From the NCBI GenBank assembly GCA_964349125.1, contig CAYGFH010000002.1, positions 110,484-174,483 of the forward strand: DNA of 64,000 bases. Reading direction: 5' to 3'. A program made the position numbers and the translations under genes. The notes under the pieces were generated by a model that saw only the letters and a program-made list of their open reading frames with translations, searched no databases and was not told where the DNA came from. This DNA comes from an uncultured Gammaproteobacteria bacterium (GTDB lineage: Bacteria; Patescibacteriota; Microgenomatia; UBA10105; UBA927). Numbering within the stretch: position 1 is the first letter of the stretch; every line of letters begins with the position of its first letter. This document shows, one piece after another, positions 39,321-64,000 of this stretch.

Positions 39321-39327
39321 CGACACT

Positions 39328-44475: not shown

Positions 44476-44517
44476 TGCACATCTCTACCACCTCCGAGGT
44501 GGAAGTGAAAATTGAGG

Positions 44518-46350: not shown

Positions 46351-46450
46351 TTCTTCAGTCTATACCCATCTTACGCAGGTTTGCAACAGAAATATGTTGC
46401 CAAAACGGCTTAGATGGGTTTATACCCGAAACATGCTGCACGTGTGAAGG
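46351..46450 (-). promoter_or_regulatory. Conserved structured 5' leader element (GGGTATAnACCCATCTAA ... TGCAAAyCTGmGTAAGATGG) upstream of 44518..46350; second copy at 35702..35800 upstream of 34031..35701
   Basis: Direct comparison of the two upstream regions. Both contain TTAGATGGGTyTATACCC and CATCTTACnCAGnTTTGCA, plus inverted-repeat potential (TATAAACCCATCT / AGATGGGTATA). Confidence 0.5.
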
Positions 46451-46694
46451 GTGTACTAGAACATCGCGGTAACGACAATAACTGACGGAGTCTCTGAATA
46501 TACATGTGTTGACTGATGTCATCCTGCCCCTGTATTCTAGTTGAGTGGATACGCAGTCAACCTTTCCCAGTAAAGCAATGATTATTTCCCTATTGGGGTC
46601 ACTCGTTTTGATTACTGTTTCCAGTTGGATCATTGAGTACGCGTACACGAGAAGTGCGTTTGGCGTAACCCCATAAGTGAGTACCGTATTAGGA

Positions 46695-48488: not shown

Positions 48489-48503
48489 ACTTTGATCATA
48501 GCA

Positions 48504-48546
48504 CGGTAAAATCGCTAATCGCTAATGGTTATTCGTTATTCGTATA
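48504..48546. repeat. Heptamer array (ATCGCTA x2, TGGTTAT, TCGTTAT x2-like) in the promoter region of the minus gene starting at 48488
   Basis: Read directly. Confidence 0.75.
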
Positions 48547-48600
48547 TATTATTCTGTCCCCTAACCCCTATTCTAATCTCTATGGTACAATTGCGCTGAT

Positions 48601-49371
48601 ATGAACGATGTAGACGAGCTTCCGGATCTGCCCAATCTCAAAAACACAGGCCTTATCGCAGGGGTAATTTGCGTGGGGCTTATCTTGTTTATCATTCTGC
48701 AACACAATTTGTCATTTCAAAAAACCTCACAAACAATAATCCCGGCTGGAAATACCTATCTTGGCCCCCCAAAGACAGAGACTCCGGCTCCCACCGCAGA
48801 AACGGTAGTAGCAACAAATACACCAGACACTACCCCACTTCCCACCGAAAAAGGCCGGACGAATACCAAAGCAGTCGTGACAATGAATGCACAGGGCAAA
48901 CTCACAGCTCCCGCAGATGTTCCCATGACCGTTATGAAAGGGAAAAGATATCCATACTCATTTTCTGTTCCGTCCACCCTCAAGCTAACGACGTTTCCCA
49001 ATGATCAATTTGATATTTACGCAATCGTGTGGGAAAACCGCCCGCCGGACCAGAACGTACTCGTTGGAGTTGATAATTTATCACGTACAGATGCACTAAA
49101 ACAATATATATCACTTTCCAAACGGTCATATGTGGAGACATGGTGGAAGCAGTTTGGAGGACTCAAGGGAGTCGCATCCATAGTGGAATTCAAAAACAGC
49201 AAAGGACTCAAGGGGTATCGTGCGAAATATTTAAACACCAGTAATCAGTCTCCAAACGAGGATGTTTTTTTTGAGACACCCGACCCCAAGTTCGTCATTC
49301 ATCTGGCAAGCGGCATTCTAGACAGCGCACTGTTTAACAGTATCGTTGATACCGTTTCGTGGAGTAAGTAA
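48601..49371 (+). CDS. Hypothetical membrane-anchored protein with Pro/Thr-rich linker
   Basis: TM helix LIAGVICVGLILFIIL, then a PTAETVVATNTPDTTPLPTEKG linker and a ~150-aa domain. Confidence 0.35.
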   Translation: MNDVDELPDLPNLKNTGLIAGVICVGLILFIILQHNLSFQKTSQTIIPAGNTYLGPPKTETPAPTAETVVATNTPDTTPLPTEKGRTNTKAVVTMNAQGKLTAPADVPMTVMKGKRYPYSFSVPSTLKLTTFPNDQFDIYAIVWENRPPDQNVLVGVDNLSRTDALKQYISLSKRSYVETWWKQFGGLKGVASIVEFKNSKGLKGYRAKYLNTSNQSPNEDVFFETPDPKFVIHLASGILDSALFNSIVDTVSWSK

Positions 49372-49451
49372 CAGTATTGTCATTCTCGACCATATCGAAA
49401 ATCTCTGTATAATTAATTACATATCCCCGCCCGCAGGGTGACTTTCTTTCT

Positions 49452-51047
49452 ATGAAGCGTGCAGTCATTAGTATCATCCTCATATTCACCATACTCAATA
49501 TCAGCAGTTTTTTTATTATGCGTGCTCGGGCACCAAAATATACCGTATACACGGGCGCGGTGCACTATCCGCCGGATTATCTGTACTACTTGTCCTATAT
49601 CGCTCAGGGACGTGATCATTGGGTGCTTGGAGAGAATCTTAAATCCGCTGAGACAACACAGGGAGCGCTGGTAAATTGGTTCTATGTACTGGGAGGACGC
49701 TTCGGCAACAGTATCGGAATGTCAGACATTATCACCTATCAACTACTCGTCATTATGGCAAGTATTTGGTATTTGTCTGCGTCCTATTTTTTATTTGCGC
49801 TCTGTTTCCCAAAGCAACCCATGACTCGGCTCATCGCATGGGTGCTGTTTTTGCTCTCAAATGCGTTTCCAAAAATCACTCATACGTCCCAGGGATGGGA
49901 TTTTGGATTTTACTACCCGTTTAACAATCTGGGACATCCCTTCGTACGGCTTTCAAATGTACCGCACCATACACTTATTCAGGGGTCTATTATGGCTGCA
50001 TTTGCATTCACTCTCTATTACTGGAAAACATACGCGCCAAACGCACTGGGCATGCTCATTCTGCTTGGTATGATACTCGGAACAATGCAGCCACTTCAGT
50101 GGGTGTTTACTGGTAGTGTAATTGGCGTGTATGGGCTTGTACTCTGCTACGCTATATATACAAAACAGTGGCAACACCCATATGAATTTCTCCGGCCGCT
50201 TTTGCCCGCTGTCTCATTATGTATCATAGGATTTCCCGGCGCACTCTATATACAGCACCTGTATAGTGGCCCTCTCTACCAATACATGCTTGCCTGGGAA
50301 AAAAATCAGCATGTGTTCATCCCTATTATCGACTTTATTCGGTTGCATGGCCCTGTGGTACTCATAGGGTTACTTGGCATTCCGATCACATTCCCAAAGA
50401 CCCCACGACATATACATATAGTATGGGTGTATTCAGGACTCGCGCTTGCTATTTTTTTCTCTCCTATCCCGCAGTGGATTGGAGTACTTAATCTTAGATT
50501 TTTGTCCGTGCTGCCAATATTCGTTGCTTCTTATGCAACTGCCGAACTCATTAGAAGGATAACGAAACGGGCATCGCAACAGCTTCGCTATCCCCTTATG
50601 TGGACCATCGCATTTCTTATCATCGCCATTACCATACCTGTCACATATGCACATGTTGCATTGGGTCGACCGAATGCTAAAGGCGAGGATGTACTCACCT
50701 ATCTGCCTATTGGTGCCTTCCAGATATATGAAACAGCAAAATACAGTATTGACCCACAGGAAACGACGTTGGTTACACCTCTGTTTACACAAAGCTTTCC
50801 AGCATTTACCGGTCGACATGTCTATGAGGCGGATGTATTTGGAACCATCGATTTTGCCCGCAAACACGCTGAGGCGCAGCGTTTTTGGAGCTCCATTGAC
50901 CCGCCAGATGTGCGTGCCAATTGGCTTCGCAAACAGGATATTTCCTATGTATTCACCTATGCCTGGACCCCTATTTCAGATATGCAAAACCTGACAGTGG
51001 TGTCTGCAAACGATTATGCTATCTTGTATAAAGTGCGGCACAATTAA
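49452..51047 (+). CDS. Polytopic membrane protein, putative GT-C-fold glycosyltransferase (paralog)
   Basis: 'PPDYLYYLSYIAQGRDHW' loop motif. C-terminus ...ISYVFTYAWTP...AILYKVRHN. Confidence 0.35.
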   Translation: MKRAVISIILIFTILNISSFFIMRARAPKYTVYTGAVHYPPDYLYYLSYIAQGRDHWVLGENLKSAETTQGALVNWFYVLGGRFGNSIGMSDIITYQLLVIMASIWYLSASYFLFALCFPKQPMTRLIAWVLFLLSNAFPKITHTSQGWDFGFYYPFNNLGHPFVRLSNVPHHTLIQGSIMAAFAFTLYYWKTYAPNALGMLILLGMILGTMQPLQWVFTGSVIGVYGLVLCYAIYTKQWQHPYEFLRPLLPAVSLCIIGFPGALYIQHLYSGPLYQYMLAWEKNQHVFIPIIDFIRLHGPVVLIGLLGIPITFPKTPRHIHIVWVYSGLALAIFFSPIPQWIGVLNLRFLSVLPIFVASYATAELIRRITKRASQQLRYPLMWTIAFLIIAITIPVTYAHVALGRPNAKGEDVLTYLPIGAFQIYETAKYSIDPQETTLVTPLFTQSFPAFTGRHVYEADVFGTIDFARKHAEAQRFWSSIDPPDVRANWLRKQDISYVFTYAWTPISDMQNLTVVSANDYAILYKVRHN

Positions 51048-51170
51048 CGGCCGTGCGCCACAAGAATCAGACATCATCTCAGGTTCTATAAATGCATAAT
51101 GGCGGGTGCTGTGTGTGTTTGTTACAATGCCATATACACAGCCGTTACATGACACTATAAGAGAGAACCA

Positions 51171-53126
51171 GTGGTATCAATGTGGTGTTATATTCTTATG
51201 AAACGAGTCTTTACATACCTTGCTGATCCATCTCATATACACATCATTTTAGCGGTGGGATTGCTGTTTCGTCTCGTACTTATACCGAGCCCCGGGTTTG
51301 AAGCGGACATTTCATTCTGGAAATCATGGGGTCTTGCTGTGCGTGATTACGGCATAGTGAAGGGATTACCACTTACGAATTTCAACTACCCTACTCCTTT
51401 CGGATACATGCTTGGTTTCATGGCGCATGTGTATAGCCTTTTCTCTGATCCGCATAATTTTGATCAGTTCTGGAAAAATACAAATCTCCTCTTCCTCACT
51501 GTTGCAAAAGCTCCATCAATTTTAGCTGATTTTGGTATTTTTACTATTATCCTTTGGGTTGGGAAAAATGCAAAACGGCTCAATTTTCCGCAACTTTCGC
51601 TCTCAATCTATTATCTTTTGGCAGCCATATATATACTTTCTCCCCTCCCGATGTTTGATGGTGCGCTTTGGGGACAGGTTGATAGTGTGGGGGTATTTCT
51701 GTTTCTGCTTGCCAATGTGTTCGTATGGAGAAAACAGCCACTTTTGGGAGGAATTTTTTACATGGTTTCCATGATGACCAAGCTGCAGAACCTTATCTAC
51801 GGACCGGCATTTTTTCTCTTTGTCTGGCAATATCTGGGTTATACGGGACTTGTGCGGGCAGTCGCCGGGAGCGTAGCCACATTTATCGGACTGAACATTG
51901 AGTTTATCCTTGCTAGGCAAATGTACCGCGTTGCGGGAGACCTGACAGGCAATTATGACTATTTCCCATGGATGTCGCTTAATGCCTATAACGTCTGGTG
52001 GATAGTAGCCAAGGCGCACGGGATGCAGATTTCAGATAAACTGTCAGTCATAGGTATTGCAAGCGCAAAGACAGTCGGATTATTTCTGTTTTCCTCCACA
52101 TACCTTTTGGCCTGTTTACAAATGCTTAGAGGTCGATTCCTTGGTGTCGTTGCGAGCGAAGCGCGGCAATCTCATCATAAGATTGCTTCGACCGATGGTA
52201 CTCATGGGTCTCGCAATGACATTGATGAAAGCTCAATCATCAATAAAGAACTTATCTTCCGCTACCTGAGCGCACTTATCATTGTGTGTGCCGGGTTCTT
52301 CCTATTCCAAACTCAATCGCACGACAGATATGCATTCCCAATCGCTGTATTTGCCCTTCTTTGGGCTCCCTTTTACATCAGCGGGTTACGTGTTGCGATA
52401 GACAAAGTACGCATACAACAATTTATATTGTTTTACGGAATTTTTACCGTTCTATTTTTCTACAACATCCATAACGCCATGATTGCAAACTACCCAAAAA
52501 ATGGCATCCCGCTTCTCGGTTCACTCAATATCCCTCCCCTGACCATCGCCACGTCGTATGGGCAAATAGGGTTATTCCTTGCCTTTCTGTACACTATCAG
52601 AACATACATAACGAACCAAATTTTCATAATTGCGACGAGTGTTTGGATATTACTTGTCGTCATGGCAAACAAGGCACTCATTCTGGGTAAGCCCATACCC
52701 ATCACAGACCTCACACCAATTACCAGCATCACGGGCTACGGCAGGCGTCAGGAAAACATGCCGGTGAATGCGAGTTTCGGTATAAAAAACTGGGGATTTT
52801 TGTCGGTACAATATGCGTACTACAAGCGAGGTATAGGAACACACGCGCCGAGCCGTGAGGTATATGATATAAATCGTAAGTTTCGCACACTTTCTACAGA
52901 CATGGGAATCGACACCAACGGCGGACCACAGGGAAGTGTGATATTTTCAGTGTATGGGGACGGGAAACAACTGTACCAATCAGAACTTATCAAGCGGTAC
53001 GAATTCCCTAGGCACGCCACCATAGATATAACAGGTGTAAAGACACTGGAACTAAGCATTTCAGATGGCGGAAACGGAAATTTTGATGATCATGCAAATT
53101 GGTTAAACACGTACCTGATACCGTAA
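51171..53126 (+). CDS. Polytopic membrane protein (GT-C-like paralog) with C-terminal NPCBM/NEW2 carbohydrate-binding domain
   Basis: The C-terminal 140 aa 'FGIKNWGFLSVQYAYYKRGIGTHAPSREVYDI...GIDTNGGPQGSVIFSVYGDGKQLYQS...LELSISDGGNGNFDDHANWLNTYL' match the NPCBM signature. The gene contains an in-frame 75-bp palindromic element at 52146..52220. Confidence 0.45.
   Translation: MVSMWCYILMKRVFTYLADPSHIHIILAVGLLFRLVLIPSPGFEADISFWKSWGLAVRDYGIVKGLPLTNFNYPTPFGYMLGFMAHVYSLFSDPHNFDQFWKNTNLLFLTVAKAPSILADFGIFTIILWVGKNAKRLNFPQLSLSIYYLLAAIYILSPLPMFDGALWGQVDSVGVFLFLLANVFVWRKQPLLGGIFYMVSMMTKLQNLIYGPAFFLFVWQYLGYTGLVRAVAGSVATFIGLNIEFILARQMYRVAGDLTGNYDYFPWMSLNAYNVWWIVAKAHGMQISDKLSVIGIASAKTVGLFLFSSTYLLACLQMLRGRFLGVVASEARQSHHKIASTDGTHGSRNDIDESSIINKELIFRYLSALIIVCAGFFLFQTQSHDRYAFPIAVFALLWAPFYISGLRVAIDKVRIQQFILFYGIFTVLFFYNIHNAMIANYPKNGIPLLGSLNIPPLTIATSYGQIGLFLAFLYTIRTYITNQIFIIATSVWILLVVMANKALILGKPIPITDLTPITSITGYGRRQENMPVNASFGIKNWGFLSVQYAYYKRGIGTHAPSREVYDINRKFRTLSTDMGIDTNGGPQGSVIFSVYGDGKQLYQSELIKRYEFPRHATIDITGVKTLELSISDGGNGNFDDHANWLNTYLIP
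52146..52220. mobile_element. MITE-like palindromic element copy A (75 bp) with terminal inverted repeats GTCGTTGCGAG / CTCGCAATGAC and internal hairpin GCAATCT-n7-AGATTGC, inserted in-frame in a CDS
   Basis: Direct alignment with copy B. It is translated as ...VVASEARQSHHKIASTDGTHGSRND. Confidence 0.6.
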
Positions 53127-53139
53127 TAACATTCTGCAT

Positions 53140-53231
53140 GTCATTGCGAGGAGTCCACGACAGTTCGTCGTGACGACGCGGCAATCTCTTTCGTATAGAT
53201 TGCTTCGCCGTTGGAACGGACTCGCAATGAC
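53140..53231. mobile_element. MITE-like palindromic element copy B (92 bp), intergenic
   Basis: TIRs GTCATTGCGAGGAGTCC / GGACTCGCAATGAC. It shares the core GCGGCAATCTC..AGATTGCTTCG with copy A. Confidence 0.6.
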
Positions 53232-53243
53232 AAAGAAGAATAT

Positions 53244-55751
53244 ATGAAAAAACTGACGATTGATAAAATACTAGGACTGCTGATGCTCATTTTTTCCATC
53301 GGCTTCAACTTGTTTCTCTACAGGTTGGAGCCCACCGCGACAATCGACCCAAACGACAATACATTCCAGTTTGCTCTCGTAGATAGGACAAACACTATAT
53401 GGGATTTTGCTGTCAAAAAGTGTTCATCTTCAATATCCGGAATTTTGACCTATCCGATCTGTCATTTTTCGTACTTGGCTGACCATTGGGTGAACAATTG
53501 GGCAGAAGGATATAACCTCCCCTACTACTACTCACATATCCCGCAGATTGCCATAGTTGGAAGCTACCGATTGATTCACTGGATTACTTCAATGTTCAAT
53601 GTTCAATTTTCAATTTTTCAATACTATCATGTAGTGATTTATTTGCTTCTGTGTTTTACTCCACTGCCTGTATTTCTTGCCATCCGTGTGATTGGATTGT
53701 CTTGGCTGACAGCAGGCATAGGCGCGCTCTTAGCTACACATTTATCTACGGACGGATTGTACGGCCTTGACCCGTCTTCGTACCTTTGGCGGGGATACGG
53801 ATTATCCAGTCAGCTGTTTGCGATGATATGGCTTCCTCTGGCATTGGCCTATTCGTATAAATTTTTCGTTAACCGTGAACCGTTAACCGCTAACCGCGAT
53901 TGGAAACACTTATTTTCGATTAACGATTTACGATTAGCGATTAGCGCTATTGTATTTACTACCCTCACCACCGCCGGTCATTTGGGTATCGGTATGATTA
54001 CCATGCTCTCTATTGGCTTTTTGGCTATCTCAAACCCGATTTCTAGATTCATGGAGCAGTCATCTCGTAAGGAAATCCTGCAGTCTCTTTTTGAATCGCT
54101 TATCCGATTATTCCTGATCGCAGGAGTGTCGATTTTCCTCCTGAGCTACTGGATTATCCCAACCTTTATACATGGCAACTTCCACAATATGTCCTTCTGG
54201 GATCCGGTGTGGAAATTTGACTCGTACGGGGCTATGGAAACAATCATCAGATTGTTCAATGGAGATCTATTGGACTTCGGGCGCGTCCCCATTCTGACCG
54301 CGCTAACATTTGCAGGGATAGTGGCTGGATTTGGTCTGACTATCAACAGGGCTGTGAAACGGGCTGAAGATGCTGACGGACAAGCAGATGGCATATATAA
54401 AACGCTCTACCCTTTCTCGTTTCTTTTCTTATTCTGGATAGTATTTTACTTCGGCCGTACCACGTGGGGTGGACTGATTGATCTCATTCCCGGCATGAAG
54501 GATTTTCATTTGTCCCGTTTCATAGTCGGTGTGCATGTAGCCTCTATGCTGTTAATACCGATCGGATTTTCTTGGATCGCTGAACAGTTGATTCAATACA
54601 TACAACGATCCAAGAATGTTCAATTTTCAATTTTCAATTATCGATTACCGTCTCACTTGCTTATTCGCGTATTTGTGTATATGTCTATTGGAATATTGAT
54701 TATTCCTCCTGTCTATCGGTGGACACTCACCTATAATGAGCTCAACGACCGACTGATCGTCCAGGCAAACGGCAACCATGCAAAGGTAACAGAAGATGAG
54801 CAGGCACTATTTACAAAGCTGCGAAGCCTACCTCCCGGGCGCATATTTGCGGGGCGTGGTGGAGGGTTCGGGAAACGGTTCGAGGTCGCGGAAACACCAT
54901 ACTACATGCATCTGTCCACGTACGGCCTTCCTACCACATTATGGCTCCCGGAAACATGGTCTATGAACTCCGATACAGAACAGTATTTCAGTGAGGATCA
55001 GGAAAAAGATTATGACTTATACAATATCAGATATGTGGCGGCTCCAGCAGATGAGCCGGCACGTCCATTTTGGACACTGATAGACGAACGCCCCACATGG
55101 AAACTGTATAAAGTGAAAACAACCGGATACTTCACCACAGGAGTACGACCGGCAACCATTTCTATCGGAAAACAATCATTTATGTCATTGGTTCACCTGT
55201 GGATTCAGTCAGATATGCATAAAAATAGATTGTTTCCCGAAATGACCTTTGATACAACGTATCCCAAACCATTCGGACTTCCAAATTTCAAAATGCTAGA
55301 TGAGGTTACGTACATGACCCCAGATGGAAAAAAGCACAACCTATGGGCTGAACCTCCGGTCTATCTCCCCTCGGGCGTGAAATCACTTGACGAGTTTGCA
55401 AAATTAGAAAACCAGAAGCAGGGAGACATGGAGCTCCTTGGCCCTGAGAAAACCGACACAGATATGGTATTTTCCACGACGGTGAAAGTCGGTAAAAATT
55501 GTACGGAGTGCATGGTTATCCTAAAACACACATTCCATCCCGGATGGAGGGCATTCATTGACGGAAAAGCGGCAAAAACGATGATAGTATTCCCCTTCTA
55601 TATCGGAGTTCATGTTCCAGAAGGAACACATACGATAACACTTTCTTATGAACCATCAAAGCTAAAAATAGCACTTCTTACAGCGGCTATCGTCGCCTTG
55701 GCAGGGTTCATTTGGTTAGCCCGTCTACACGCTCCAAAAAATCAAACCTAA
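53244..55751 (+). CDS. Large (about 835 aa) polytopic membrane protein, GT-C-like paralog with extended C-terminal extracytoplasmic domain and terminal TM
   Basis: I moved the start to MKKLTIDKILGLLMLIF because the track start at 53211 lies inside the MITE-like element. It contains heptamer-repeat-encoded NVQFSIFQY / NVQFSIFNY and LTANRDW...INDLRLAIS segments. Confidence 0.35.
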   Translation: MKKLTIDKILGLLMLIFSIGFNLFLYRLEPTATIDPNDNTFQFALVDRTNTIWDFAVKKCSSSISGILTYPICHFSYLADHWVNNWAEGYNLPYYYSHIPQIAIVGSYRLIHWITSMFNVQFSIFQYYHVVIYLLLCFTPLPVFLAIRVIGLSWLTAGIGALLATHLSTDGLYGLDPSSYLWRGYGLSSQLFAMIWLPLALAYSYKFFVNREPLTANRDWKHLFSINDLRLAISAIVFTTLTTAGHLGIGMITMLSIGFLAISNPISRFMEQSSRKEILQSLFESLIRLFLIAGVSIFLLSYWIIPTFIHGNFHNMSFWDPVWKFDSYGAMETIIRLFNGDLLDFGRVPILTALTFAGIVAGFGLTINRAVKRAEDADGQADGIYKTLYPFSFLFLFWIVFYFGRTTWGGLIDLIPGMKDFHLSRFIVGVHVASMLLIPIGFSWIAEQLIQYIQRSKNVQFSIFNYRLPSHLLIRVFVYMSIGILIIPPVYRWTLTYNELNDRLIVQANGNHAKVTEDEQALFTKLRSLPPGRIFAGRGGGFGKRFEVAETPYYMHLSTYGLPTTLWLPETWSMNSDTEQYFSEDQEKDYDLYNIRYVAAPADEPARPFWTLIDERPTWKLYKVKTTGYFTTGVRPATISIGKQSFMSLVHLWIQSDMHKNRLFPEMTFDTTYPKPFGLPNFKMLDEVTYMTPDGKKHNLWAEPPVYLPSGVKSLDEFAKLENQKQGDMELLGPEKTDTDMVFSTTVKVGKNCTECMVILKHTFHPGWRAFIDGKAAKTMIVFPFYIGVHVPEGTHTITLSYEPSKLKIALLTAAIVALAGFIWLARLHAPKNQT
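53867..53947. repeat. Heptamer arrays CGTTAAC-CGTGAAC-CGTTAAC-CGCTAAC-CGCGATT and CGATTAA-CGATTTA-CGATTAG-CGATTAG inside a CDS
   Basis: Read directly. Confidence 0.8.
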
Positions 55752-56006
55752 GCTTTAAAATCAATGGTGTATTGAAGCTAAAATTTTGACATATTGTATG
55801 AATATTGCTATTGACCAATCTATCCGCATTGTTTTCTCTCGCGATAAAGACACGTGTTATCTTCTCGACATCGGCTCGCACGATGAGGTGTATTAGTTTG
55901 AGAGACAACCACTTGTGTAAAATATACTCACGCCCTTCAAACATGTCACTGTTTTTGGGAATCACTTCTGAGTTTCTTTAACACTCGGCGTTCACGATGT
56001 GTATTT

Positions 56007-59000
56007 TTATCTTGCTTCTTCCGCCTCGCTACAGCTATACATATCATTATGTAGTGTCGGATTATATCTATTGAAAAATGCTTCCATGCCAAATAAATCT
56101 CTGAGAACCTTCAGCTCATCAGCCCACCTGAGTGCTCCGTATTGTGATCGCGATTGCCCAAGAACCGTCGGGATAATGACTTCCGGAGATGTGTTATTTA
56201 AAAGCACCAATAAATTAAACGCATGATATGCTTCTCCGACGCGATTGACCAGTGAATAGTCCTTATATTCATTTTTAGCCAGAAGCGCATCTGCGTTGAA
56301 ATATCCTTCAATCGGATACGGCAATTCTTCCGGGTGACCGTATTGGGACAAAATCATATCTCCTGTAGTCTCAGGGGTTTTATACGCTGGCAATGTGTTA
56401 AAGGATAAATTAGACGAATATTCATCCAAAATATGTTTTCGCATCCAATTGGCGGATTGCCATAACGGAATCATTTCTTCACGATTTTGCTTAGCGGTAA
56501 ATGCCTGTCGGGATTGATACTTCAGATAGTTCGTAGTGTCTGTAAGAGCTAAATCTAAATCACCATTCTCATAATCCAAAAAATGCGCCAAAATATATGA
56601 AGCAGATACTGGAGTATTGGTTTCCTCCACTGTCTTCTCAATTTCTTTTGTCAACAAATAGAAAGCCTCTAATCTTGGTTTATATGAGTCTTCTGGCAAA
56701 TCTGTATTGAACGCGGCACTATACCCACCCCCGCGTCCTAATAAGTCCGTAATCGGCATGCCACGATAGGTTTGCTCTCCGACACCTTTTAAGCATGTAA
56801 ACGCAGATTTCGGCAGGTTTCCACTTGATCCACTTGTTCCCTCAACAGCTTTCCAACCATTTTCGATAAACAGTCGTATCAACGATTTTCCAACCATGTA
56901 ATCTGCCAAACCATCTTCACAAATGTCCTTTATGAGCTTATATTTCTCATCATCCTTCTGAATTTTTTTTGTGAATTGTGAAACTACTTCATAGGGTGAC
57001 GTATAGTCTCCATAACTCCAAATGACAGGCGCATTTGGATTATTTTCTCTATACAGATCAATTCCTTCCTGAACTATTTCCTTCACGGGACGTGCGTTTG
57101 GATTCTCTTGTGGCAACGCTGGCCCGTGCAACGTATCATCTTCTACAGCCATCTGTAACAAATCTTTGTGCCAGTACGATAGCCAAAGATACGCGGAGCC
57201 TTTCACTAGTAAGCGCCCTACTGTATAGCTCATTGTTCCCTCTTTGCATTTATTTAAGATGTCGGAAAGAAGTTGGAGTGAGAATACCCAGGTAAGTATT
57301 TGTCGTTTTTTCATCTTTTTTTCTCCACCACCCCCACCGTTTCCCTTTTCTGAATCTCGCAATCTCAACGCTTGGGCGACTGCAACAGGGGCGTGTGTGA
57401 TAATTTTTCCTACTGCAGCCAAACATGTTTTTCCAAAGCCCGCACCATCCCCGTCCTTCGCATAAACTTTGTGAATAAACGGATTTTGCCCCAATCCTCC
57501 CCCACCGCAATAATCTTCAACAGCAGCAATTTCTTCTTTAATTTGAACTGTTTCATTCTGAAATTGTAATTGTGTTGTTCCATTATTTGAAATACCTGAA
57601 TGACCATCCCTATCTGGATTTGAATATACATATCCTGGATTGGTGTTCATAAACACTGGTAGCTTATTTGGTATATTAATATTTTTATTCAACCAATTGC
57701 CTGGATTCAGATAATCATTTTCTTGCACTCTATTTGGTCTTATATTCTTGGATAGATTTTTTTCGTAACGTGCCTTTCGATATACCTGAGCAAGTGAGAA
57801 AATACGCACAGCATAGAAATTTTTTCTAAGCCCATAAATCAAAATATCTGCAGAAGCATCAGTATAGAAAATCGATATATTTTGTGTTTTTGAAGTAGGC
57901 ATTCTATTATTTGAAATTTCTATGGCTAAATACCTTGCCTCTTTCTCAATATTCATAACTTCCTCTGCTGTAAACTCATGCTGGAAATATTGTTTCAATG
58001 CCTTATATTGGGCACGATATGTTGAGTATTTGATATATCCTTTATAGATAAGTTCAGGCACATTATGGGTGAAGAATAATAAGCCACCCACTATAGCACT
58101 TGTCGGTTCAAACTTGTTGTCAACCAAAATTTGTGCGGACATAAGCGGCTGAAGTATAGTCCATGCATGTATACTTGTTTGGATAATTGTTTTTAATATA
58201 GTGCTTTGAACGTCTGCTGTAACACCTTCATCCTGTACCTTTTGAATAAATTCTCCGAGTCTATCAGTAGATTGCATAAATCGTAGTACTGATGGGTGAA
58301 TAATACCAAATATAGTCGGTTCAGATTGTGAGGATGCTTTTTTATTTTTTAGAAGCATAGTGCCAACACTCTTTTCCCATTCCTTGTCAATAATTTCCTG
58401 ATTGAGCTGTTTTTGAAGCTCTTTTAAGATAGACACTGTATTTTCCGCTTGGCGTATTCGTGCATCCCAACGTTCCGTCCATATTTGGACTGAGCTCACA
58501 GGGCGATTGCTTAGAGATATCTGTGTTTTATTTGTCGTGCCTCCTAAATAATTTCCGCTCCATTGCGCAAGAATAGCGGTATGTAATTTCGATGGAATAT
58601 CTGTCTGCTTCAGGAATTCACGCATTTCATTTTCAAAAGTTGATTCCAGATATAAGGTATCCGGAGTAAAGGCGTCGGAGTATTTTGATATTGTATCCTG
58701 AAAAATTTCATCCGAAGTCGCAAGTGATGATTGGATGTGCGCAACTTGTTTATGCATAAGCATTTTCATACGTTGTTCTTCTGTGAATTGGTATGGGTTA
58801 TAGTACCAACTATCAGTTCCAACGCCGTGTTGCTGAGACATGACTCTCATTAGAGTTCCTGTACCAAATAATGAGTCGATTAATGTTCCCAAAGCCGGAG
58901 CACTAAATTGTTGGCCATCTGATCCGACAAAGTGTTGTATTCCATACAAGTGTTCACTTCTGGCTGAAACGACGAGAGATCTCCAGACAAGCTGTTCTGG

Positions 59001-62000
59001 AAGATACGACATTAATACATCTAACACTGTACGAATACCGTATACAGACTCATCATACGAAGGAGCTCCCCCAGGGATGATTGAATGTGCAAGAGTCTCT
59101 GTAAGTCCTTCCATATTTCCTGTATCTACAGCAATCGATGGAACGTATGCAGTATTCGGTTGCATCATATGGATACTCTCATGTATTGATGTTTGCAACA
59201 GACTAATAAGTCCCATAATTACTTGCTGCCCTTCGGAAAAAACCGATAATCCAGCTACTGCAGTTTGAGTGCTTGATTGTTGCATCCCAGCTTCATTCGA
59301 TGTTAATGTTAATTTCAGTTGCTGCTCTATATACGAGATAGGAAATACAAGATCCTCGGGAGTGTGCCATGCGTCATTCCAACCCGTTCTCTCTTTCATA
59401 ACTTGCTTCGCTTTTGACTGTGATGCATGCTGTATTTCGCGATAATTATTTATGCTTCCGAAAATATCAAGAACATTTTCTATAGATGCCAATGCAAGCA
59501 TGCTGACAAATCTAAGCTTTTCATCACTTATATGCTCACTTGTCACACTATTTCCGAATCGTATGAAGAGTATTTTTAGAATTTCCCGCTCTTCCTGCGT
59601 AAACGATGAATAATCAAAAAGATTAGCGTTTAATCCTGAGACTTTGTGTAAGGTATCTCGATATTTTTTTAGCAAAATATCTAATTTTTTCATCGGGACG
59701 GTCACTGAATCACCACCCGCTATGTTCTTCGCAATATGATATGTTAAATCCTCGTAGGGAAATGGTATATGGAGTATCGATGCTGCTGCTTCATACTCTT
59801 CAAAATTTACGGCACCATGAGGACTCTCTGTAGATGTAGGTTGATGATTTTTTTGTGTGATTTTACGACTATTTTGCATATATAATACATACCCATTAAC
59901 AATATCTTCACTGAAGAGTATCTGCGTTGGGTTTAATGCTTTTATTTCTTTCATGATATATAAAATATCTTCCGTGGTCAGAATTGATCTGATGCCATTT
60001 TTAAGATCCAGAAGTCTAGGATGATGTTCAACCATTGGTTCAAGCGCATTGCTCACCAAAATTATTCGTTGAATTTTTTCTAAATTATTCACGGCCTCAG
60101 TAGCGTGGCGATTTATAACACTTGTTGAATCAGTATCATGTACGCGTACTGCTTTTCTTTGTCTAACACCGATTCCCTGTTTCAGTATTTGACTCAAACG
60201 TGAAGCTGGTATACCCATATCTGGTATAGCGAGTAACCAATCGGATGAAGTAGATATGATTGGTAATGAGCCGATATGTATACGGGCTAGCGTCCAATCC
60301 AATATGTTAAATACGCCTAAGGAAGTGATGAGTTTGGAAACATATTGAACAATTTGTAATTCCTTGAACAGCGTAATTGCATTTGATGAGATACCTGTTA
60401 TGGAATCTATCTGCTGCTGAGGTAATACAACGTCCAGGGCATGCCATACTCCCCAAGCTCCAATAGTGCTTCCCAAAATTCTCACTACTCTCGATGCTAT
60501 GCGTTTGGGCCAAAAATATTTCTCAAGTGGCTTTAGGGCCTCTGTAGTTATAGTATTTCCTAATTTATTGGCAAGCACCTTTAATAGCACTTCTGTCTCA
60601 TGTGGAGTTACATTTTCAAGGAATATTTTAGAAAAAACAGACATACGTATGTATATAACCGGAGCACGTTTCATATTGCCCTTTCGATCAATAATTGCAG
60701 AATGTGTTACAAATTGTGGCTTGTTATTCACAGTCCAATTAATCCAATCCAAACTCAGTATTTTGCCTATAATTGGTATGCGAAAAGGAGCTATGCTTGC
60801 CATGTACGCCCGGTATTCTTCAGGCGTCAGGATTACGCGGGTGCGTTCGGCGATCTGTATACCTGTAGCGTAGTCAATATTAGTTTCTATTACGGCCTTT
60901 TTAATCATTTCTTTGATAGCACCTGAATTCACTATCATCGTATAAGAAACTCCAGATCGATCAGTCTGATATGCGAAAGAGTTAGCATATTCAATTTCCT
61001 GTTGTCTCATCGGAAGAACCCAATGTTTTATGAGCATAAGTATACTTTCTTGTGGTATATTCGTTTTTGTCGAACCATACCCTCTCGATTGCATATACCT
61101 GATAATTGAACCGATCGGAGCAGTCCATATTTTTCGTATCGATTGAATACTGGTACTAACCAAAGGGTGATGTGCTATCCTGCTTCTCAACCCAGGTTTA
61201 CACGCAGATGCTGATGTGTCAGCGGCAAATACTATTTTGGTTAATCCGAAGCTATTGATTGTTACGGCGCATGCCTCTGCAGCATTCAGGCGCACCTCCT
61301 CAAACTTTGCTGCTATTTGGGACAAAATAGTATAGGTAAACCATTCAGAGGGAAGTCTGAACATTGATCCGTTTAGATAGATACTTGGTCTCACCGATGA
61401 TCCTCCGGATTTGTATTTAGCTATCAAAAAGAAATGTCCGCTGGATGTGAATGCCGGTATAAGCTGTTCGATATTTGACGGCTGGGGCGATGCCATGCCA
61501 AACCAACCAAAGCTTCCAGAGGCCGTCTGCATGAGGCCGCCTTCTTTCCCGTTACTACACGAATTAAATATGATGGAAGGATTTTCTACAAATACCTTTT
61601 TGATAATCGGTGCCAAAAATGAATCTTCGTATAAATCTGCTTTTGCGAGGATTTGATTCATATCGCTCGCATCACCAAAGGACATCTGATTGGCTGATCC
61701 ATGACCACCAAATACGCCAAATACCATGCGATTACCTCTCCCGTACCGCTCATGAAGTGTTTCGAGTTTTTTCCCTAGCGTTTGTATATCCTGTACCTCA
61801 ACTACTCTGACAAGTGGAGGTTTGAAGTCATACGAGGCATCGTGTAACTGTTTCATCTGCGAATGAAACGTCGAGAGCATTTTTATTTCGCTTAAAAATG
61901 CCCCGTTCCAATCAGCTTCCGGATTTATAATGACTCCATATTCTCGTGTTGTATCGTTTCTTTCATCGTACTGCGCAACGAGCATTTCTGTGGGATAGCG

Positions 62001-64000
62001 GGCGAAATTTTTTATGCCAAATTCATGTAACAATACAACTGCAGACCCTTTTCGTTCTTTCTCCAACCTCTCAATGGCAAGAATATTTTGCTCGTATGTA
62101 TAGAGGAAATCCCTATCTGATTTATTCAGAGGATCATATAAACTTGGGTTTATTTCTCGCATCGGGATCGGACCTAAATTCCATGCATTGCGTATAGCAC
62201 TGGTTTCCTCACCGGTAAAGCCATATTTCTGTATCAATAGGCTCACATTACGCGGCAGCAAGGTATCTCCGTTGGGATTCATCAGGGTGGCCATAAAATC
62301 AGAGGATGCTCTGGTGGGATAGAACCCTTCCATGGCACCGCTGAGAATGAGCATTTTATATCGCAATGGATTTTCGCGTAATCCTTTCCTGATCTCTGGA
62401 TTAAACGCCATGTCTAACATAGTATTCATCACATCTGAAGCCCGTCTTCCGTGAGGCAAGTACCCGTACGTTCCATTAATCTCATCCGTGATCACAGTAA
62501 CCTCTCGCATTCCTGCTCCATTGAGTGCCTCCGTAATCAGCGCTTTTTCATCGTTTGATAAGTAATCACGCAGACTTCGGAAATTCCCATAGTGGTAGTA
62601 CATTTCCCTCACAAAATCTTCGAGAGATGAATGCCCGTTTTCATTTACTATTGTTTGCATAAACGTAAATTGTGTACGAATATAGGAAAGTGCTTTTGCT
62701 TTTGCATTCGCTGATCCAAATCGAAGTATTTGCATGAGTGGATACATTCTGGTGTACCATGCTGCCGATCCGTCTCCATCGGTAAAGCGAAGAATGTCAT
62801 CAAAATGCGATTCCAAAAACCGGACTGATTCCCTATCTACTATAGAAATAGAATTATTAACGCTATAAGAAATAAGTTGTATCGATGCATTTGGGTCTTC
62901 TGCAAAGTGTTCTCGAAAAATGTCTGCATTAAATGCCAATATATCTATAACATTTTCCCGCCCGTTATCCGATGAATCATCAGCTGTAATAAACGAGACG
63001 AATGTATTCAATAGCGTGGCGTAATCCTCTTTCGACTTTGAAAGAAGTAGTAGATCTGTTCGAATATCTTCCTGTAACGATTCCCATTGTGGGGTTCTCC
63101 ATAATTTTCTATCTAGCGCAGCGAACTCTTTTACGTTAAAAAGAATTCGCGAAGCTGCTAGGCTTGCTGTAGTAGTACCTGGTGATTGCTTCTTCACAGT
63201 TTCAACCACAGAATCATCTGTTGTTGGAACAAGCGAACTGTTAGAATCCAGTGTTTTTTCTATCCACGCTTTGATTGCTCCAAAGAATTTTTGGACAGCG
63301 GTTTGCCGTGGAAGTGGCATAAGGGTATTGCCGGAAATTCTTAAAATTTCTTCGTTATTTTGGGTAAATATAATTGTTCTGGTATTTTCGAAATAGATGG
63401 TTTCATTTGGAGTAATTTGGTATTTGGTCGGGTCATCAGCAAAGTGGTAAAACCCTTCAGATGGTACTTTCCCAAGTAACTTCCCATTAGCATCGAAATA
63501 CTGTCCTCCTGCAGACAAAATTACACACCCTATACCTTCCCGCTGTGCAAACACTTGTGGAACCAAATGAAGGGCCCTGTCTCCGCAGAGATTGAATGAT
63601 TTTTTTGCTATCCCATTTTTTGACGGCTCAAATTCTGCCTGCTGCAATATTTCATATGTCCCCCGTGTTCCCCCACCCCAATGGATAGTATCTGCAGGGC
63701 CACCTTTATCTGCGCCCACACTAAATGAACCTCTCCCCACAAACTGTTCTGCATCATTACCGTTTGGACTGTCCCCTATCTTAATCACATCATCCAATTC
63801 AATTCCATGTTCCTGTAGGACTCTAAATATATTTCCTTTATTTGCTTCATTGGATCTGATTGAAATAGAGTGACGACTACGTGACACAGCTACAACTGGT
63901 AGTGATTGCTGCGTAATATACTTCTGTATCACACTCACTGCTGGAGACGTTAACTGAGCATCTTCTAACCAAAGTGTCAGTGACTCTTTTTCTTCATAGA
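56007..64000 (-). CDS. Giant multidomain protein (>2,660 aa), 5'-truncated at the window edge; N-terminal HAD/Cof-like fragment and a central region with a candidate His/Cys dyad
   Basis: The frame stays open past the track's GTG at 63938 to nt 64000. 'KGNIFRVLQEHGIELDDVIKIGDSPNGNDAEQF' resembles HAD motif III/IV. 'MVFGVFGGHGSAN ... IIFNSCSNGKEGG' appears mid-protein. GC is visibly lower than in the rest of the window. Confidence 0.55.
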   Translation of the reverse strand, partial: YEEKESLTLWLEDAQLTSPAVSVIQKYITQQSLPVVAVSRSRHSISIRSNEANKGNIFRVLQEHGIELDDVIKIGDSPNGNDAEQFVGRGSFSVGADKGGPADTIHWGGGTRGTYEILQQAEFEPSKNGIAKKSFNLCGDRALHLVPQVFAQREGIGCVILSAGGQYFDANGKLLGKVPSEGFYHFADDPTKYQITPNETIYFENTRTIIFTQNNEEILRISGNTLMPLPRQTAVQKFFGAIKAWIEKTLDSNSSLVPTTDDSVVETVKKQSPGTTTASLAASRILFNVKEFAALDRKLWRTPQWESLQEDIRTDLLLLSKSKEDYATLLNTFVSFITADDSSDNGRENVIDILAFNADIFREHFAEDPNASIQLISYSVNNSISIVDRESVRFLESHFDDILRFTDGDGSAAWYTRMYPLMQILRFGSANAKAKALSYIRTQFTFMQTIVNENGHSSLEDFVREMYYHYGNFRSLRDYLSNDEKALITEALNGAGMREVTVITDEINGTYGYLPHGRRASDVMNTMLDMAFNPEIRKGLRENPLRYKMLILSGAMEGFYPTRASSDFMATLMNPNGDTLLPRNVSLLIQKYGFTGEETSAIRNAWNLGPIPMREINPSLYDPLNKSDRDFLYTYEQNILAIERLEKERKGSAVVLLHEFGIKNFARYPTEMLVAQYDERNDTTREYGVIINPEADWNGAFLSEIKMLSTFHSQMKQLHDASYDFKPPLVRVVEVQDIQTLGKKLETLHERYGRGNRMVFGVFGGHGSANQMSFGDASDMNQILAKADLYEDSFLAPIIKKVFVENPSIIFNSCSNGKEGGLMQTASGSFGWFGMASPQPSNIEQLIPAFTSSGHFFLIAKYKSGGSSVRPSIYLNGSMFRLPSEWFTYTILSQIAAKFEEVRLNAAEACAVTINSFGLTKIVFAADTSASACKPGLRSRIAHHPLVSTSIQSIRKIWTAPIGSIIRYMQSRGYGSTKTNIPQESILMLIKHWVLPMRQQEIEYANSFAYQTDRSGVSYTMIVNSGAIKEMIKKAVIETNIDYATGIQIAERTRVILTPEEYRAYMASIAPFRIPIIGKILSLDWINWTVNNKPQFVTHSAIIDRKGNMKRAPVIYIRMSVFSKIFLENVTPHETEVLLKVLANKLGNTITTEALKPLEKYFWPKRIASRVVRILGSTIGAWGVWHALDVVLPQQQIDSITGISSNAITLFKELQIVQYVSKLITSLGVFNILDWTLARIHIGSLPIISTSSDWLLAIPDMGIPASRLSQILKQGIGVRQRKAVRVHDTDSTSVINRHATEAVNNLEKIQRIILVSNALEPMVEHHPRLLDLKNGIRSILTTEDILYIMKEIKALNPTQILFSEDIVNGYVLYMQNSRKITQKNHQPTSTESPHGAVNFEEYEAAASILHIPFPYEDLTYHIAKNIAGGDSVTVPMKKLDILLKKYRDTLHKVSGLNANLFDYSSFTQEEREILKILFIRFGNSVTSEHISDEKLRFVSMLALASIENVLDIFGSINNYREIQHASQSKAKQVMKERTGWNDAWHTPEDLVFPISYIEQQLKLTLTSNEAGMQQSSTQTAVAGLSVFSEGQQVIMGLISLLQTSIHESIHMMQPNTAYVPSIAVDTGNMEGLTETLAHSIIPGGAPSYDESVYGIRTVLDVLMSYLPEQLVWRSLVVSARSEHLYGIQHFVGSDGQQFSAPALGTLIDSLFGTGTLMRVMSQQHGVGTDSWYYNPYQFTEEQRMKMLMHKQVAHIQSSLATSDEIFQDTISKYSDAFTPDTLYLESTFENEMREFLKQTDIPSKLHTAILAQWSGNYLGGTTNKTQISLSNRPVSSVQIWTERWDARIRQAENTVSILKELQKQLNQEIIDKEWEKSVGTMLLKNKKASSQSEPTIFGIIHPSVLRFMQSTDRLGEFIQKVQDEGVTADVQSTILKTIIQTSIHAWTILQPLMSAQILVDNKFEPTSAIVGGLLFFTHNVPELIYKGYIKYSTYRAQYKALKQYFQHEFTAEEVMNIEKEARYLAIEISNNRMPTSKTQNISIFYTDASADILIYGLRKNFYAVRIFSLAQVYRKARYEKNLSKNIRPNRVQENDYLNPGNWLNKNINIPNKLPVFMNTNPGYVYSNPDRDGHSGISNNGTTQLQFQNETVQIKEEIAAVEDYCGGGGLGQNPFIHKVYAKDGDGAGFGKTCLAAVGKIITHAPVAVAQALRLRDSEKGNGGGGGEKKMKKRQILTWVFSLQLLSDILNKCKEGTMSYTVGRLLVKGSAYLWLSYWHKDLLQMAVEDDTLHGPALPQENPNARPVKEIVQEGIDLYRENNPNAPVIWSYGDYTSPYEVVSQFTKKIQKDDEKYKLIKDICEDGLADYMVGKSLIRLFIENGWKAVEGTSGSSGNLPKSAFTCLKGVGEQTYRGMPITDLLGRGGGYSAAFNTDLPEDSYKPRLEAFYLLTKEIEKTVEETNTPVSASYILAHFLDYENGDLDLALTDTTNYLKYQSRQAFTAKQNREEMIPLWQSANWMRKHILDEYSSNLSFNTLPAYKTPETTGDMILSQYGHPEELPYPIEGYFNADALLAKNEYKDYSLVNRVGEAYHAFNLLVLLNNTSPEVIIPTVLGQSRSQYGALRWADELKVLRDLFGMEAFFNRYNPTLHNDMYSCSEAEEAR

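Follow-up and report, generated by a model that had tools for sequence, protein, structure and literature searches.

What kind of gene is the giant open frame that leaves the edge of the window (the whole 64,000-nucleotide stretch of probable Patescibacteria DNA analysed here), and what might its product do? We favor the reading that it is a genuine giant gene of an ultra-small Patescibacteria (CPR) bacterium, encoding a soluble multidomain protein whose internal protease would process its own precursor or a partner, and we put the probability of this explanation as a whole at about one half. The features on which it rests are collected in Table 1.

Table 1. Coordinates of the features discussed, in window positions
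Feature	Position	Strand	Remarks
Convergent spacer between YfhO-like gene and giant ORF	55752..56006		255 bp
Giant ORF, in-window part	56007..64000	minus	2,663 sense codons plus TAA stop (56007-56009); 5' end beyond window
Assembly-break zone inside giant ORF	57054..57244		ends of three independent short-read assemblies (same organism): 57244, 57235 and 57054
Gly-rich stretches and segment between	57324..57509	minus	CGGGGL, aa 2164-2169; GNGGGGG, aa 2219-2225
Stretch with a relative, aa ~1196-1875	58373..60410	minus	orthologue remnant L027, JGI metagenome 3300038404, 79% nucleotide identity
HESIH (HExxH), aa 1606-1610	59169..59183	minus	judged a chance occurrence, ~0.08 expected from residue frequencies
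Extension after module, aa 870-967	61098..61391	minus	common only to the 1,073-aa relative P0027
Clan CD cysteine-peptidase-like module, aa 582-880	61359..62255	minus	Patescibacteria-wide family; helical lead-in, then alpha/beta core
Cys814 codon (NSCSNG), predicted catalytic Cys	61557..61559	minus	invariant in 149 sequences; follows model strand 184-193
His766 codon (GGHG), predicted catalytic His	61701..61703	minus	invariant in 149 sequences; follows model strand 139-145
Stretch spanning Asp696 and Glu734	61797..61913	minus	invariant alignment columns D77 and E115
HAD-IIB-like domain, C-terminal half, aa 15-91	63726..63956	minus	Cof / sucrose-phosphate phosphatase / phosphoglycolate phosphatase-like

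Coding status and composition of the giant frame

The original prediction of a single ORF of more than 2,660 aa running out of the window was borne out: the minus-strand frame read from 63998 to its TAA contains zero stops over 2,663 codons and reaches the window edge, and each of the other five frames holds 78 to 190 stops. At the local base composition, the chance of such a run is about 1e-80. GC content follows a GC1 > GC2 > GC3 periodicity over the codon positions, and dN/dS against the orthologue in L027 is 0.23-0.50 (combined, 0.32). The earliest in-window start codon is a GTG at 63938; since the HAD phosphatase similarity already starts upstream of this codon in the profile, the start of the ORF lies outside the window, and with the missing start counted (at least ~115 residues beyond the window) the protein would be at least ~2,780 aa long. 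Three other assemblies match, at 100% identity, the final 1.0-1.2 kb of the ORF together with its downstream genes (below 56007), and continuity upstream of ~57,250 is based on a single assembly. The zone in which assemblies break contains no repeat and no low-complexity sequence to account for the breaks. Taking these data together with the protease module described below, we regard it as highly probable that the ORF is a genuine, coding, lineage-restricted gene carrying a clan CD protease module.

The frame had been described as more AT-rich than its neighbors, and calculation agrees: its GC is 0.401 and its GC3 is 0.343, versus a GC3 of 0.452 +/- 0.047 for the 39 other large ORFs of the window, a gap of 2.3 gene-to-gene standard deviations (binomial z of ~11). 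GC1 and GC2 are ordinary, so the difference sits in synonymous positions, and two further ORFs of the window are equally low or lower (1666-2688, GC3 of 0.34; 20678-21823, GC3 of 0.29). Besides the protease part, aa ~1196-1875 is the only stretch with any relative, represented by the protein fragments P0010 and P0011 and by L027, in which the gene is syntenic, at the same position adjoining the YfhO-like gene. Within 2 kb, the frame of L027 is interrupted by no fewer than 4 frame changes, by stops and by 26 deletions, and a C-terminal third is not recognisable; because the YfhO-like gene of L027 is likewise broken, L027 may be merely an error-rich contig. Since L027 carries the gene at the same position, the gene is older than the split of the two lineages. 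Of the suggestion that it was horizontally acquired, the low GC3 is thus real, but a recent acquisition finds no support in view of the syntenic orthologue, and weak codon selection in a fast-evolving gene explains the low GC3 equally well.

Tandem and internal repeats were sought at both DNA and protein levels, with none found, and no 19-residue window of the protein exceeds a Kyte-Doolittle value of 1.5, leaving no membrane segment. The descriptions of the protein as non-repetitive and largely non-hydrophobic are therefore correct, and that of it as Cys-containing is true yet trivial (11 Cys, 0.4%). A giant repeat adhesin (Ig-like, cadherin or RTX), the Ig-repeat form of which had already been discounted, was rejected, as repeats, a hydrophobic segment and Pfam repeat families are all absent.

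The 255-bp spacer toward the convergent gene is present as originally placed. It holds a 32-aa ORF (55798-55896, plus strand) that is called in three assemblies, has no Pfam or PDB match and overlaps a stretch conserved in L027 (L027 positions 4126-4188, corresponding to 55895-55832 at 80%); no stable RNA fold was found in the spacer. One weak terminator-like site lies outside it. Downstream of the giant ORF there is no immunity-like gene, just the convergent YfhO-like gene and the 32-aa ORF, and no type VI secretion system (T6SS) genes were seen in the window.

A caspase-fold module and its family

The part of the protein that speaks most clearly is a module that begins with a short helical lead-in (KYGFTGEETSAIRNAW ... 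EFGIKNFARYP) and continues into an alpha/beta core. Its AlphaFold (AF2) model, with a pLDDT of 92.4, matches clan CD peptidases, namely DUF4347/Tce1, CHAT, clostripain (C11), gingipain, legumain, toxin CPDs and caspases. The modeled module forms an alpha/beta/alpha sandwich with a caspase-like central sheet, in which a His and then a Cys stand at the C-terminal ends of adjacent core strands, with small residues by the His; the modeled fold is thus that of clan CD, and His and Cys occupy the strand ends canonical for it. His766 and Cys814, which are 48 residues apart, are joined by Asp696 (61911-61913), located in the loop that follows the first core strand, and by Glu734 (61797-61799), on the second core strand; all four are invariant across 149 family members and intact in the giant. 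We infer that the module is a putative active thiol protease. By clan CD topology, Asp696 and Glu734 are candidate S1-pocket or structural residues, and, by analogy with metacaspases, the invariant Asp after the first core strand suggests a preference for a basic P1 residue; an acidic residue at this place is, we assume, a feature shared with the Arg/Lys-specific members of the clan.

Sequence profiles gave little indication of this fold. The giant, searched whole or as 323-aa tiles, has no Pfam match for the module at an E value of <=10, and searches of NCBIfam and of PDB sequences with family alignments returned no true match for it. One of ten relatives tested (P0020) matches Pfam DUF4347, at 20.2 bits versus a cut-off of 24.6 bits (E value of 5.5e-4), and membership of the module in Pfam DUF4347, CHAT, Peptidase_C11 or Peptidase_C80 was rejected, no score lying above the gathering threshold. 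The module is followed by an extension with a motif conserved between the giant and P0027, VF(A/T)AD(T/S)S..(A/T)C(K/N)P; in BLASTP, the two proteins align over giant aa 582-967 at 30% identity (E value of 1e-39).

An exhaustive phmmer search of representative proteins gave 1,108 matches at an E value of <=1e-3 and 748 at <=1e-10, nearly all on aa ~629-869, so that the family comprises more than 1,100 clusters at the 50% identity level. Among the protein searches run, this one alone revealed the family: a word-indexed search of 5.8 billion proteins gave no relative of the whole giant among its 8,000 candidates, which were taken up by chance words, at least one match with the domain alone and at least five with the 149-sequence alignment. 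The carriers are overwhelmingly CPR bacteria (22 of 23 GTDB loci with the domain are Patescibacteria metagenome-assembled genomes), and the family is a large one that has no Pfam or NCBIfam model. It is this distribution, and not marker genes, that points to a probable CPR origin of the window. Typically, the domain forms the end of a soluble protein of ~500 aa, in which a variable helical N-terminal region precedes the C-terminal protease; it is C-terminal in all 23 loci, with a median of 7 residues after it (149 hits), which makes the internal position in the giant unusual. Profile comparison gave no similarity between this helical region and aa 130-620 of the giant. None of the 127 full-length relatives has a signal peptide or a membrane segment, so the family appears to be intracellular, as would suit a regulatory protease no less than a processing one, and nothing in the gene neighborhood is conserved across the 23 loci.

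The HAD-like start and the orphan regions

The visible N terminus resembles, at the sequence level, the tail of a HAD-IIB domain, with Lys54 (ANKGN) resembling motif III and GDSPNGND (D76 and D82) resembling motif IV. NCBIfam TIGR01487 matches the region with an E value of 3.7e-5 over profile positions 118-178 of 215, below its cut-off; Pfam searches of a 323-aa tile gave weak matches to Hydrolase_3 (E value of 0.0034) and S6PP (E value of 0.024), and sucrose-phosphatase (PDB 1s2o) aligns through chain residues 124-200 (E value of 0.054). Lys54 and GDSPNGND align to 1s2o and to TIGR01487, TIGR01482 and TIGR00099, at 19-24 bits versus cut-offs of 107-198. The region thus aligns weakly to the C-terminal third of HAD-IIB phosphatases, with candidates for the Lys of motif III and the acidic pair of motif IV, but differs from them in a two-residue insertion in motif IV (GDS-PN-GND) and in scores that all lie below the curated cut-offs. 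Motifs I and II would be placed upstream of window position 64000. No fusion between a HAD-IIB enzyme and more than 2,500 aa of additional sequence is known to us.

About 80% of the giant (~2,100 aa) matches nothing known. Searches of Pfam, NCBIfam, PHROGs, PADLOC and PDB sequences with the whole giant returned the weak HAD match only, and ten 323-aa tiles searched against Pfam at an E value of <=10 added no further family; no relative emerged when genome, metagenome and viral collections were scanned with the whole giant or when metagenomes were scanned with the orthologue alignment. A single-sequence AF2 model of aa 1464-2663 reached a pLDDT of 34, too low to be of use. The Gly runs noted earlier in the C-terminal ~600 aa are present (aa 2165-2168, about 57492-57509; aa 2219-2225, 57324-57344), and their region has no match in Pfam, PDB, PHROGs or PADLOC. 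The statement that the protein carries no recognisable family motif accordingly stands for these ~600 aa but not for aa 582-880, the clan CD module, or for aa 15-91, which are HAD-IIB-like. Two motif-like strings in the orphan part were rejected: HESIH as a sign of a zinc metalloprotease, as it is replaced by SVQKYPYD in the 70%-identical orthologue fragment P0011 and no metalloprotease profile matches, and the Walker-A-like ADYMVGKS (aa 2365-2372), as it occurs at chance level (~0.17 expected) and no NTPase domain is present.

Known systems, proposed role and rival readings

Tce1 (PA0256 of Pseudomonas aeruginosa; PDB 9qpe), a DUF4347 (PF14252) protein, is the closest solved structure and shares with the module an alpha/beta caspase-like core and a His and a Cys ~50 residues apart; sequence identity is, however, 9-12%, the giant and most of its relatives have no DUF4347 match, and Tce1 is a 310-aa, Hcp-carried T6SS cargo, whereas the giant, which houses its module internally, exceeds 2,660 aa. 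In the literature, Tce1 counts as a putative cysteine protease, and the Tce1/Tce2 dyad aligns with the TcdB CPD (PMC13323088). The likeness to CHAT proteases (SAVED-CHAT and TPR-CHAT/Csx29) lies in the ~500-aa relatives, which are soluble, have no signal peptide and combine a helical N-terminal region with a C-terminal caspase-fold protease, but there is no sequence match, there are no associated sensor or nuclease genes, and the module is internal in the giant. C11 peptidases, gingipains (C25), legumain (C13) and metacaspases/caspases (C14) also have His and then Cys at the ends of successive strands, yet they show no detectable sequence similarity, and the module family has its helical lead-in EFGIxxFxRYP and is found almost entirely in Patescibacteria. 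In the C80 domains of MARTX toxins and TcdA/TcdB, a clan CD module sits inside a giant multidomain protein and cuts the precursor in cis; the protease of the giant likewise lies within a large precursor, at aa 582-880 of a chain longer than 2,663 aa, but the fold match to C80 is weaker than that to DUF4347, CHAT or C11, the flanks contain no recognisable effector, translocation or repeat regions, and the visible part has no export signal.

We propose that the giant is a soluble, non-repetitive multidomain protein in which a HAD-IIB-like head would be followed by ~450 aa of orphan sequence, the clan CD module, the ~100-aa extension shared with P0027 and ~1,700 aa of further orphan sequence, and in which the internal Cys protease would cleave the giant precursor itself or a bound partner, thereby releasing or activating the flanking parts. 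Because the module is internal and not C-terminal as in the ~500-aa relatives, cleavage of the precursor or of a bound partner would be its most likely activity, in the way of the caspase-like domains inside large toxins and polymorphic toxins; such domains have been described as processing peptidases where they are internal and as toxins where they are C-terminal (PMC3482391). Taken singly, a cis-processing role, which draws on this analogy, is a tentative assignment. A CHAT-like intracellular signaling or defense protease, in which the large non-catalytic regions would serve as sensor or scaffold and turn the protease on against cellular targets in the manner of TPR-CHAT/Craspase or SAVED-CHAT, would accommodate the relatives' order of helical N-terminal region and C-terminal protease, which is that of TPR-CHAT, and their cytoplasmic appearance; however, there is no Pfam CHAT match and no PADLOC defense-system match, CRISPR, cyclase or SAVED partner genes and conserved neighbors are absent, and so is an NTPase domain, the Walker-A-like string being at chance level, and we consider such a protease rather unlikely.

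The effector- or toxin-like function suggested originally would have the protein act in trans: exported from an episymbiotic CPR cell, its protease, and perhaps its HAD-like phosphatase, would attack proteins of the host bacterium, in the manner of MARTX toxins, large clostridial toxins or T6SS Tce effectors. The Tce1-like protease module is compatible with this, as are the giant size, the assembly breaks suggesting strain-level variability, the disrupted orthologue and the low GC3, all of them typical of conflict genes; in the ~500-aa relatives, moreover, the protease is C-terminal-most, the "toxin position" of polymorphic toxins (PMC3482391). The absence of a signal peptide or membrane segment from the 127 relatives, which look cytoplasmic, nevertheless tells against it, as do the lack, in the visible part of the giant, of a secretion signal, of RHS or filamentous repeats and of any domain recognisable as one for trafficking or as a toxin, and the lack of an immunity-like gene downstream, of a conserved gene neighborhood in the family and of any PADLOC or PHROG match, and we consider the trans-acting role rather unlikely. 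A polymorphic toxin system in particular was rejected, the visible part having no repeats and no toxin or trafficking domain, and no immunity gene being present. Finally, the frame might not be a functional single gene at all, but a remnant, neutral or only lately inactivated, in which stops have yet to arise, or an in-frame assembly chimera. The sole orthologue found is broken, three assemblies end inside the ORF at 57,054-57,244, the protein is mostly orphan and GC3 is low; yet 8 kb without a stop, a dN/dS of 0.32, which shows past purifying selection, and the intactness of all four invariant family residues argue otherwise, the broken state of L027 may reflect an error-rich contig, and against a chimera L027 independently places the central part of the gene beside the YfhO-like neighbor found here. 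We regard this possibility as very improbable, and the preferred reading remains that of a genuine gene whose internal protease would process the precursor or a partner.

To conclude, much of bacterial diversity belongs to the Patescibacteria (CPR), which live on other cells and whose lineage-specific proteins mostly lack a known function. Here, a dark giant gene carries an intact caspase-fold module, and this module is also the hallmark of a family that spans many CPR classes and more than 1,100 clusters, for which it yields a concrete hypothesis, that of a thiol protease with a defined His/Cys pair that is common in CPR bacteria. The giant itself has a rare architecture, with an internal module, a HAD-like head and an orphan tail of ~1,700 aa, and it may vary or decay among close relatives, a pattern expected of genes in conflict with hosts or phages. 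A bolder and distinctly improbable idea is that an episymbiotic CPR bacterium makes it as an effector polyprotein that processes itself, the functional counterpart of MARTX and large clostridial toxins; if this were true, the cuts would release a phosphatase-like head and ~1,700 aa of new modules acting on the host bacterium, and the ~500-aa members would represent a form that stands alone, acts in trans and occurs in most Patescibacteria lineages. If the protease is active, it would offer a biochemical entry point to the interaction between CPR bacteria and their hosts.

Open frame, composition and history of the giant gene

The minus-strand frame closed by a TAA stop (56007-56009) runs uninterrupted through 2,663 codons to 63996-63998, where the window has its last complete codon, and continues past the window's edge, as the original prediction had proposed; a stop-free run of this length has a chance probability of about 1e-80, computed from the ORF's own base frequencies, and the remaining five frames contain 78 to 190 stops each over the same 8 kb. 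The giant ORF, which also shows coding periodicity (GC1 0.48, GC2 0.38, GC3 0.34), is a real coding gene. Its product had been described as non-repetitive, largely non-hydrophobic, Cys-containing and not an Ig-repeat adhesin. This description holds: neither tandem nor dispersed repeats were found in the DNA and no internal ones in the protein, no 19-residue window reaches membrane-helix hydrophobicity, and the architecture is not that of a repeat adhesin, while the presence of cysteines is true yet uninformative (only 11, or 0.4%). The Gly-rich runs, too, are as described, and so is the 255-bp convergent spacer.

The claim of a higher AT content was confirmed by computation, with GC 0.401 and GC3 0.343 in the giant ORF against GC3 0.452 +/- 0.047 in the 39 other large ORFs of the window, a gap of 2.3 gene-to-gene standard deviations (binomial z of about 11). 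Since GC1 and GC2 are ordinary, the low GC sits in synonymous sites; TTA, AGA, CCA, ATA and AAT are the enriched codons. GC3 is low all along the gene, from 0.30-0.32 at its HAD-like start to somewhat higher values (0.39-0.43) at aa 300-900. Among the ORFs well under the window mean (see table), two have a GC3 as low or lower (0.34 and 0.29), so that the giant is not unique in this respect.

Two fragments 79% and 70% identical to the giant protein (P0010 and P0011) were found by phmmer, both on a single 4.9-kb metagenome contig, L027 (JGI 3300038404, Ga0393997_0028812, 1-4948). This contig matches window positions 60410-58373 (aa ~1196-1875) with 79% nucleotide identity, then carries 1.9 kb of unrelated, stop-filled sequence in place of the C-terminal ~790 aa, and beyond that aligns with the spacer and with the YfhO-like gene at its 3' end. 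Such synteny implies that the gene already occupied its present position in the common ancestor, which counts against a recent horizontal acquisition, and to that extent the suggested foreign origin is not supported. The dN/dS of 0.32 between the giant and L027 (574 aligned codons) indicates that the sequence evolved as protein. In L027 the reading frame shifts at least four times and is interrupted by stops, each of the 26 alignment gaps is a deletion on the L027 side, and the YfhO-like 3' end there is broken too; either the region is truly decaying or the contig is rich in errors.

Three assemblies built from short reads of other runs match the window with 100% identity and break off in the giant ORF no more than 190 bp apart, at 57,244 (Logan ERR3094302), 57,235 (Logan ERR3094293) and 57,054 (ENA ERZ27247817), and two of them share a start site (48714 and 48716). 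No repeat that could explain the ends was found at 57,054-57,244. The ends and shared starts suggest assembly-graph branch points, with strain variants at both sites; the simplest reading would be that the body of the giant gene varies between strains.

The putative protease module and its family

A word-indexed homology search with the whole giant protein gave no relative among the matches listed. When aa 560-1759 were compared by exhaustive phmmer with 1.84 billion cluster representatives, 1,108 proteins scored at E<=1e-3 (748 at E<=1e-10), and among the matches listed all but two short fragments map to aa ~629-869, with 30-43% identity. In these relatives the domain forms the extreme C-terminus (median of 7 residues beyond it) of proteins that mostly measure 400-700 aa; one relative, P0027 (1,073 aa), resembles the giant in continuing past the domain and has ~100 further residues in common with the giant (aa 870-967). 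Asp696, Glu734, His766 (GGHG) and Cys814 (SCS[TN]G) are invariant in a 149-sequence alignment that also has many near-invariant columns (EFGIxxFxRYP, PYG, DxNGAF), and the giant retains all residues of both kinds. Pfam and NCBIfam gave no match for the giant or most relatives, one relative having a sub-threshold Pfam match to DUF4347, and PDB sequence profile searches gave none for the family. Judged by sequence, the module's family is one for which current libraries have no model.

AlphaFold2 on the same alignment (aa 620-900) produced a confident model (pLDDT 92.4, pTM 0.90), in which one core strand leads directly to His766 and the next directly to Cys814. Structure comparison returned 9qpe Tce1 (DUF4347; 10.9), SAVED-CHAT (10.1), C11 clostripain-like proteases (9.8-8.7), gingipains (7.8-7.7), legumain (7.6), GPI transamidase (7.5), the cysteine protease domains of TcdA (7.3) and MARTX (7.1), and caspases, metacaspases and separase (about 7-5.4); a Foldseek search brought up these families again, Tce1 ranking first. 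The modelled fold and predicted catalytic pair thus place the module in clan CD; at the sequence level it is no member of DUF4347, CHAT, C11 or C80. The invariant Asp follows the first core strand, in a loop that is presumably the site of the S1 determinant in clan CD enzymes, and this position may point to Arg/Lys specificity.

When a 12-sequence alignment of the domain was searched against GTDB genomes, one for each species, 23 loci came back, 22 of them in Patescibacteria MAGs (Saccharibacteria, Paceibacteria/Parcubacteria, Liptonbacteria, Kaiserbacteria, Doudnabacteria, Levybacteria, Moranbacteria, Magasanikbacteria, Peribacteria and WS2) and one in a bin labelled Gammaproteobacteria. The domain ends a 330-700-aa ORF at every locus, none of these ORFs is giant, and no neighbouring gene is conserved across the 23. 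The sole member found outside Patescibacteria-labelled genomes (CAZINP010000001.1, a 240.8-kb contig, GC 0.38, bin "uncultured Gammaproteobacteria") could be due to mis-binning or real transfer. One Saccharibacteria contig (L024, 92-3264) carries two tandem paralogues of 641 and 329 aa.

Remaining protein and gene surroundings

The start of the visible part of the giant (aa 15-91) resembles the C-terminal third of HAD-IIB phosphatases, with matches to TIGR01487 (E 3.7e-5, profile positions 118-178 of 215), TIGR01482, TIGR00099, Pfam Hydrolase_3 and S6PP, and PDB 1s2o sucrose-phosphatase (residues 124-200). All score below curated cut-offs, yet they agree with one another and correctly place a motif III-like K54 and a motif IV-like GDSPNGND. 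Motifs I and II are missing and would need ~115-125 more residues, so the gene extends past the window's edge. The HAD-like segment runs into the remainder with no in-frame stop between them, and on the sequence as given the two form a fusion.

About 80% of the protein is still dark: aa ~92-580 and 970-2663 gave no match in Pfam (whole or tiled), NCBIfam, PHROGs, PADLOC or PDB sequences, nor in the 23 CPR loci or 150 retrieved proteins, which bears out the view that the C-terminal ~600 aa hold no recognisable family. Single-sequence AlphaFold2 of the last 1,200 residues gave a pLDDT of only 34 and no usable model. Two candidate motifs were rejected, HESIH (aa 1606-1610) as a chance motif because it is absent from the 70%-identical orthologue fragment, and a Walker-A-like string (aa 2365) as being at chance level.

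The window probably comes from a CPR genome, a reading that the spread of the protease family suggests and that the many orphan ORFs support; no marker gene, tRNA or Rfam match was found in it. The spacer ORF, MNIAIDQSIRIVFSRDKDTCYLLDIGSHDEVY, was called in three assemblies and is in part 80% conserved in L027; Pfam and PDB searches with it were empty, and its end looks by eye like the C-terminus of RelE/ParE-type toxins, a lead only, on which it would be a truncated remnant. Genes of the neighbouring island specify three DegT-type aminotransferases, a GNAT acetyltransferase, a TPP-dependent enzyme, an HMGL-like aldolase, an acetaldehyde dehydrogenase, several GT2 glycosyltransferases and epimerases/dehydratases, a set suggestive of a pathway to an unusual sugar, possibly a branched-chain, amino one. 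Adjoining the giant gene, positions 42853-55751 encode a series of large proteins, either orphan or predicted to be in the membrane, consistent with cell-surface glycosylation machinery.

Features of the window and of the giant protein
Feature	Position	Strand	Remarks
Discoidin/F5_F8 type C protein	5681-7129	+	weak dockerin match
Type IV pilin-like protein	10971-11633	-	N-terminal methylation motif
Low-GC3 ORF	1666-2688	+	GC3 0.34
Low-GC3 ORF	20678-21823	+	GC3 0.29
Low-GC3 ORF	42128-42823	-	GC3 0.37
Island	22021-27590	-	
Island	19299-20609		
Island	38202-40317		
PMT_2-like	42853-44475		
Four ORFs	44518-51047		256-610 aa, no Pfam match
NPCBM-domain protein	51171-53126		
YfhO-like protein	53244-55751		
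Spacer	55752-56006		255 bp
Spacer ORF	55798-55896	+	32 aa
Giant ORF	56007-64000	-	
HAD-IIB-like start	aa 15-91		
Putative protease module	aa 582-880		

Proposed role

The module would be an active thiol protease that cleaves the giant precursor, or a bound partner, and so releases or activates the flanking parts. Caspase-like domains internal to large toxins and polymorphic toxins are processing peptidases (PMC3482391), and Tce1/Tce2 have a TcdB-type dyad (PMC13323088); the giant itself does not have the architecture of a polymorphic toxin. By analogy with the internal-domain precedent, and given that the module is embedded here and C-terminal in its relatives, cleavage of the precursor or a bound partner is most likely its role.

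Several other readings can be considered: (i) a trans-acting exported effector seems unlikely, none of 127 full-length relatives having a signal-peptide-like or membrane segment and its members seeming to be soluble and probably cytoplasmic, with an N-terminal half that is helical and variable; (ii) a protease resembling CHAT that acts inside the cell in signalling or defence, with a giant sensor scaffold, is in our view similarly unlikely; (iii) a non-functional or chimeric ORF is highly improbable, a chimeric join being countered by L027, where the gene stands at the same position beside the YfhO-like neighbour.

To conclude, the giant protein represents a new variant in architecture whose core comes from a clan CD family, uncurated and mostly CPR, a finding that tells more than could be seen from the sequence at first reading, and the family offers a testable catalytic hypothesis.
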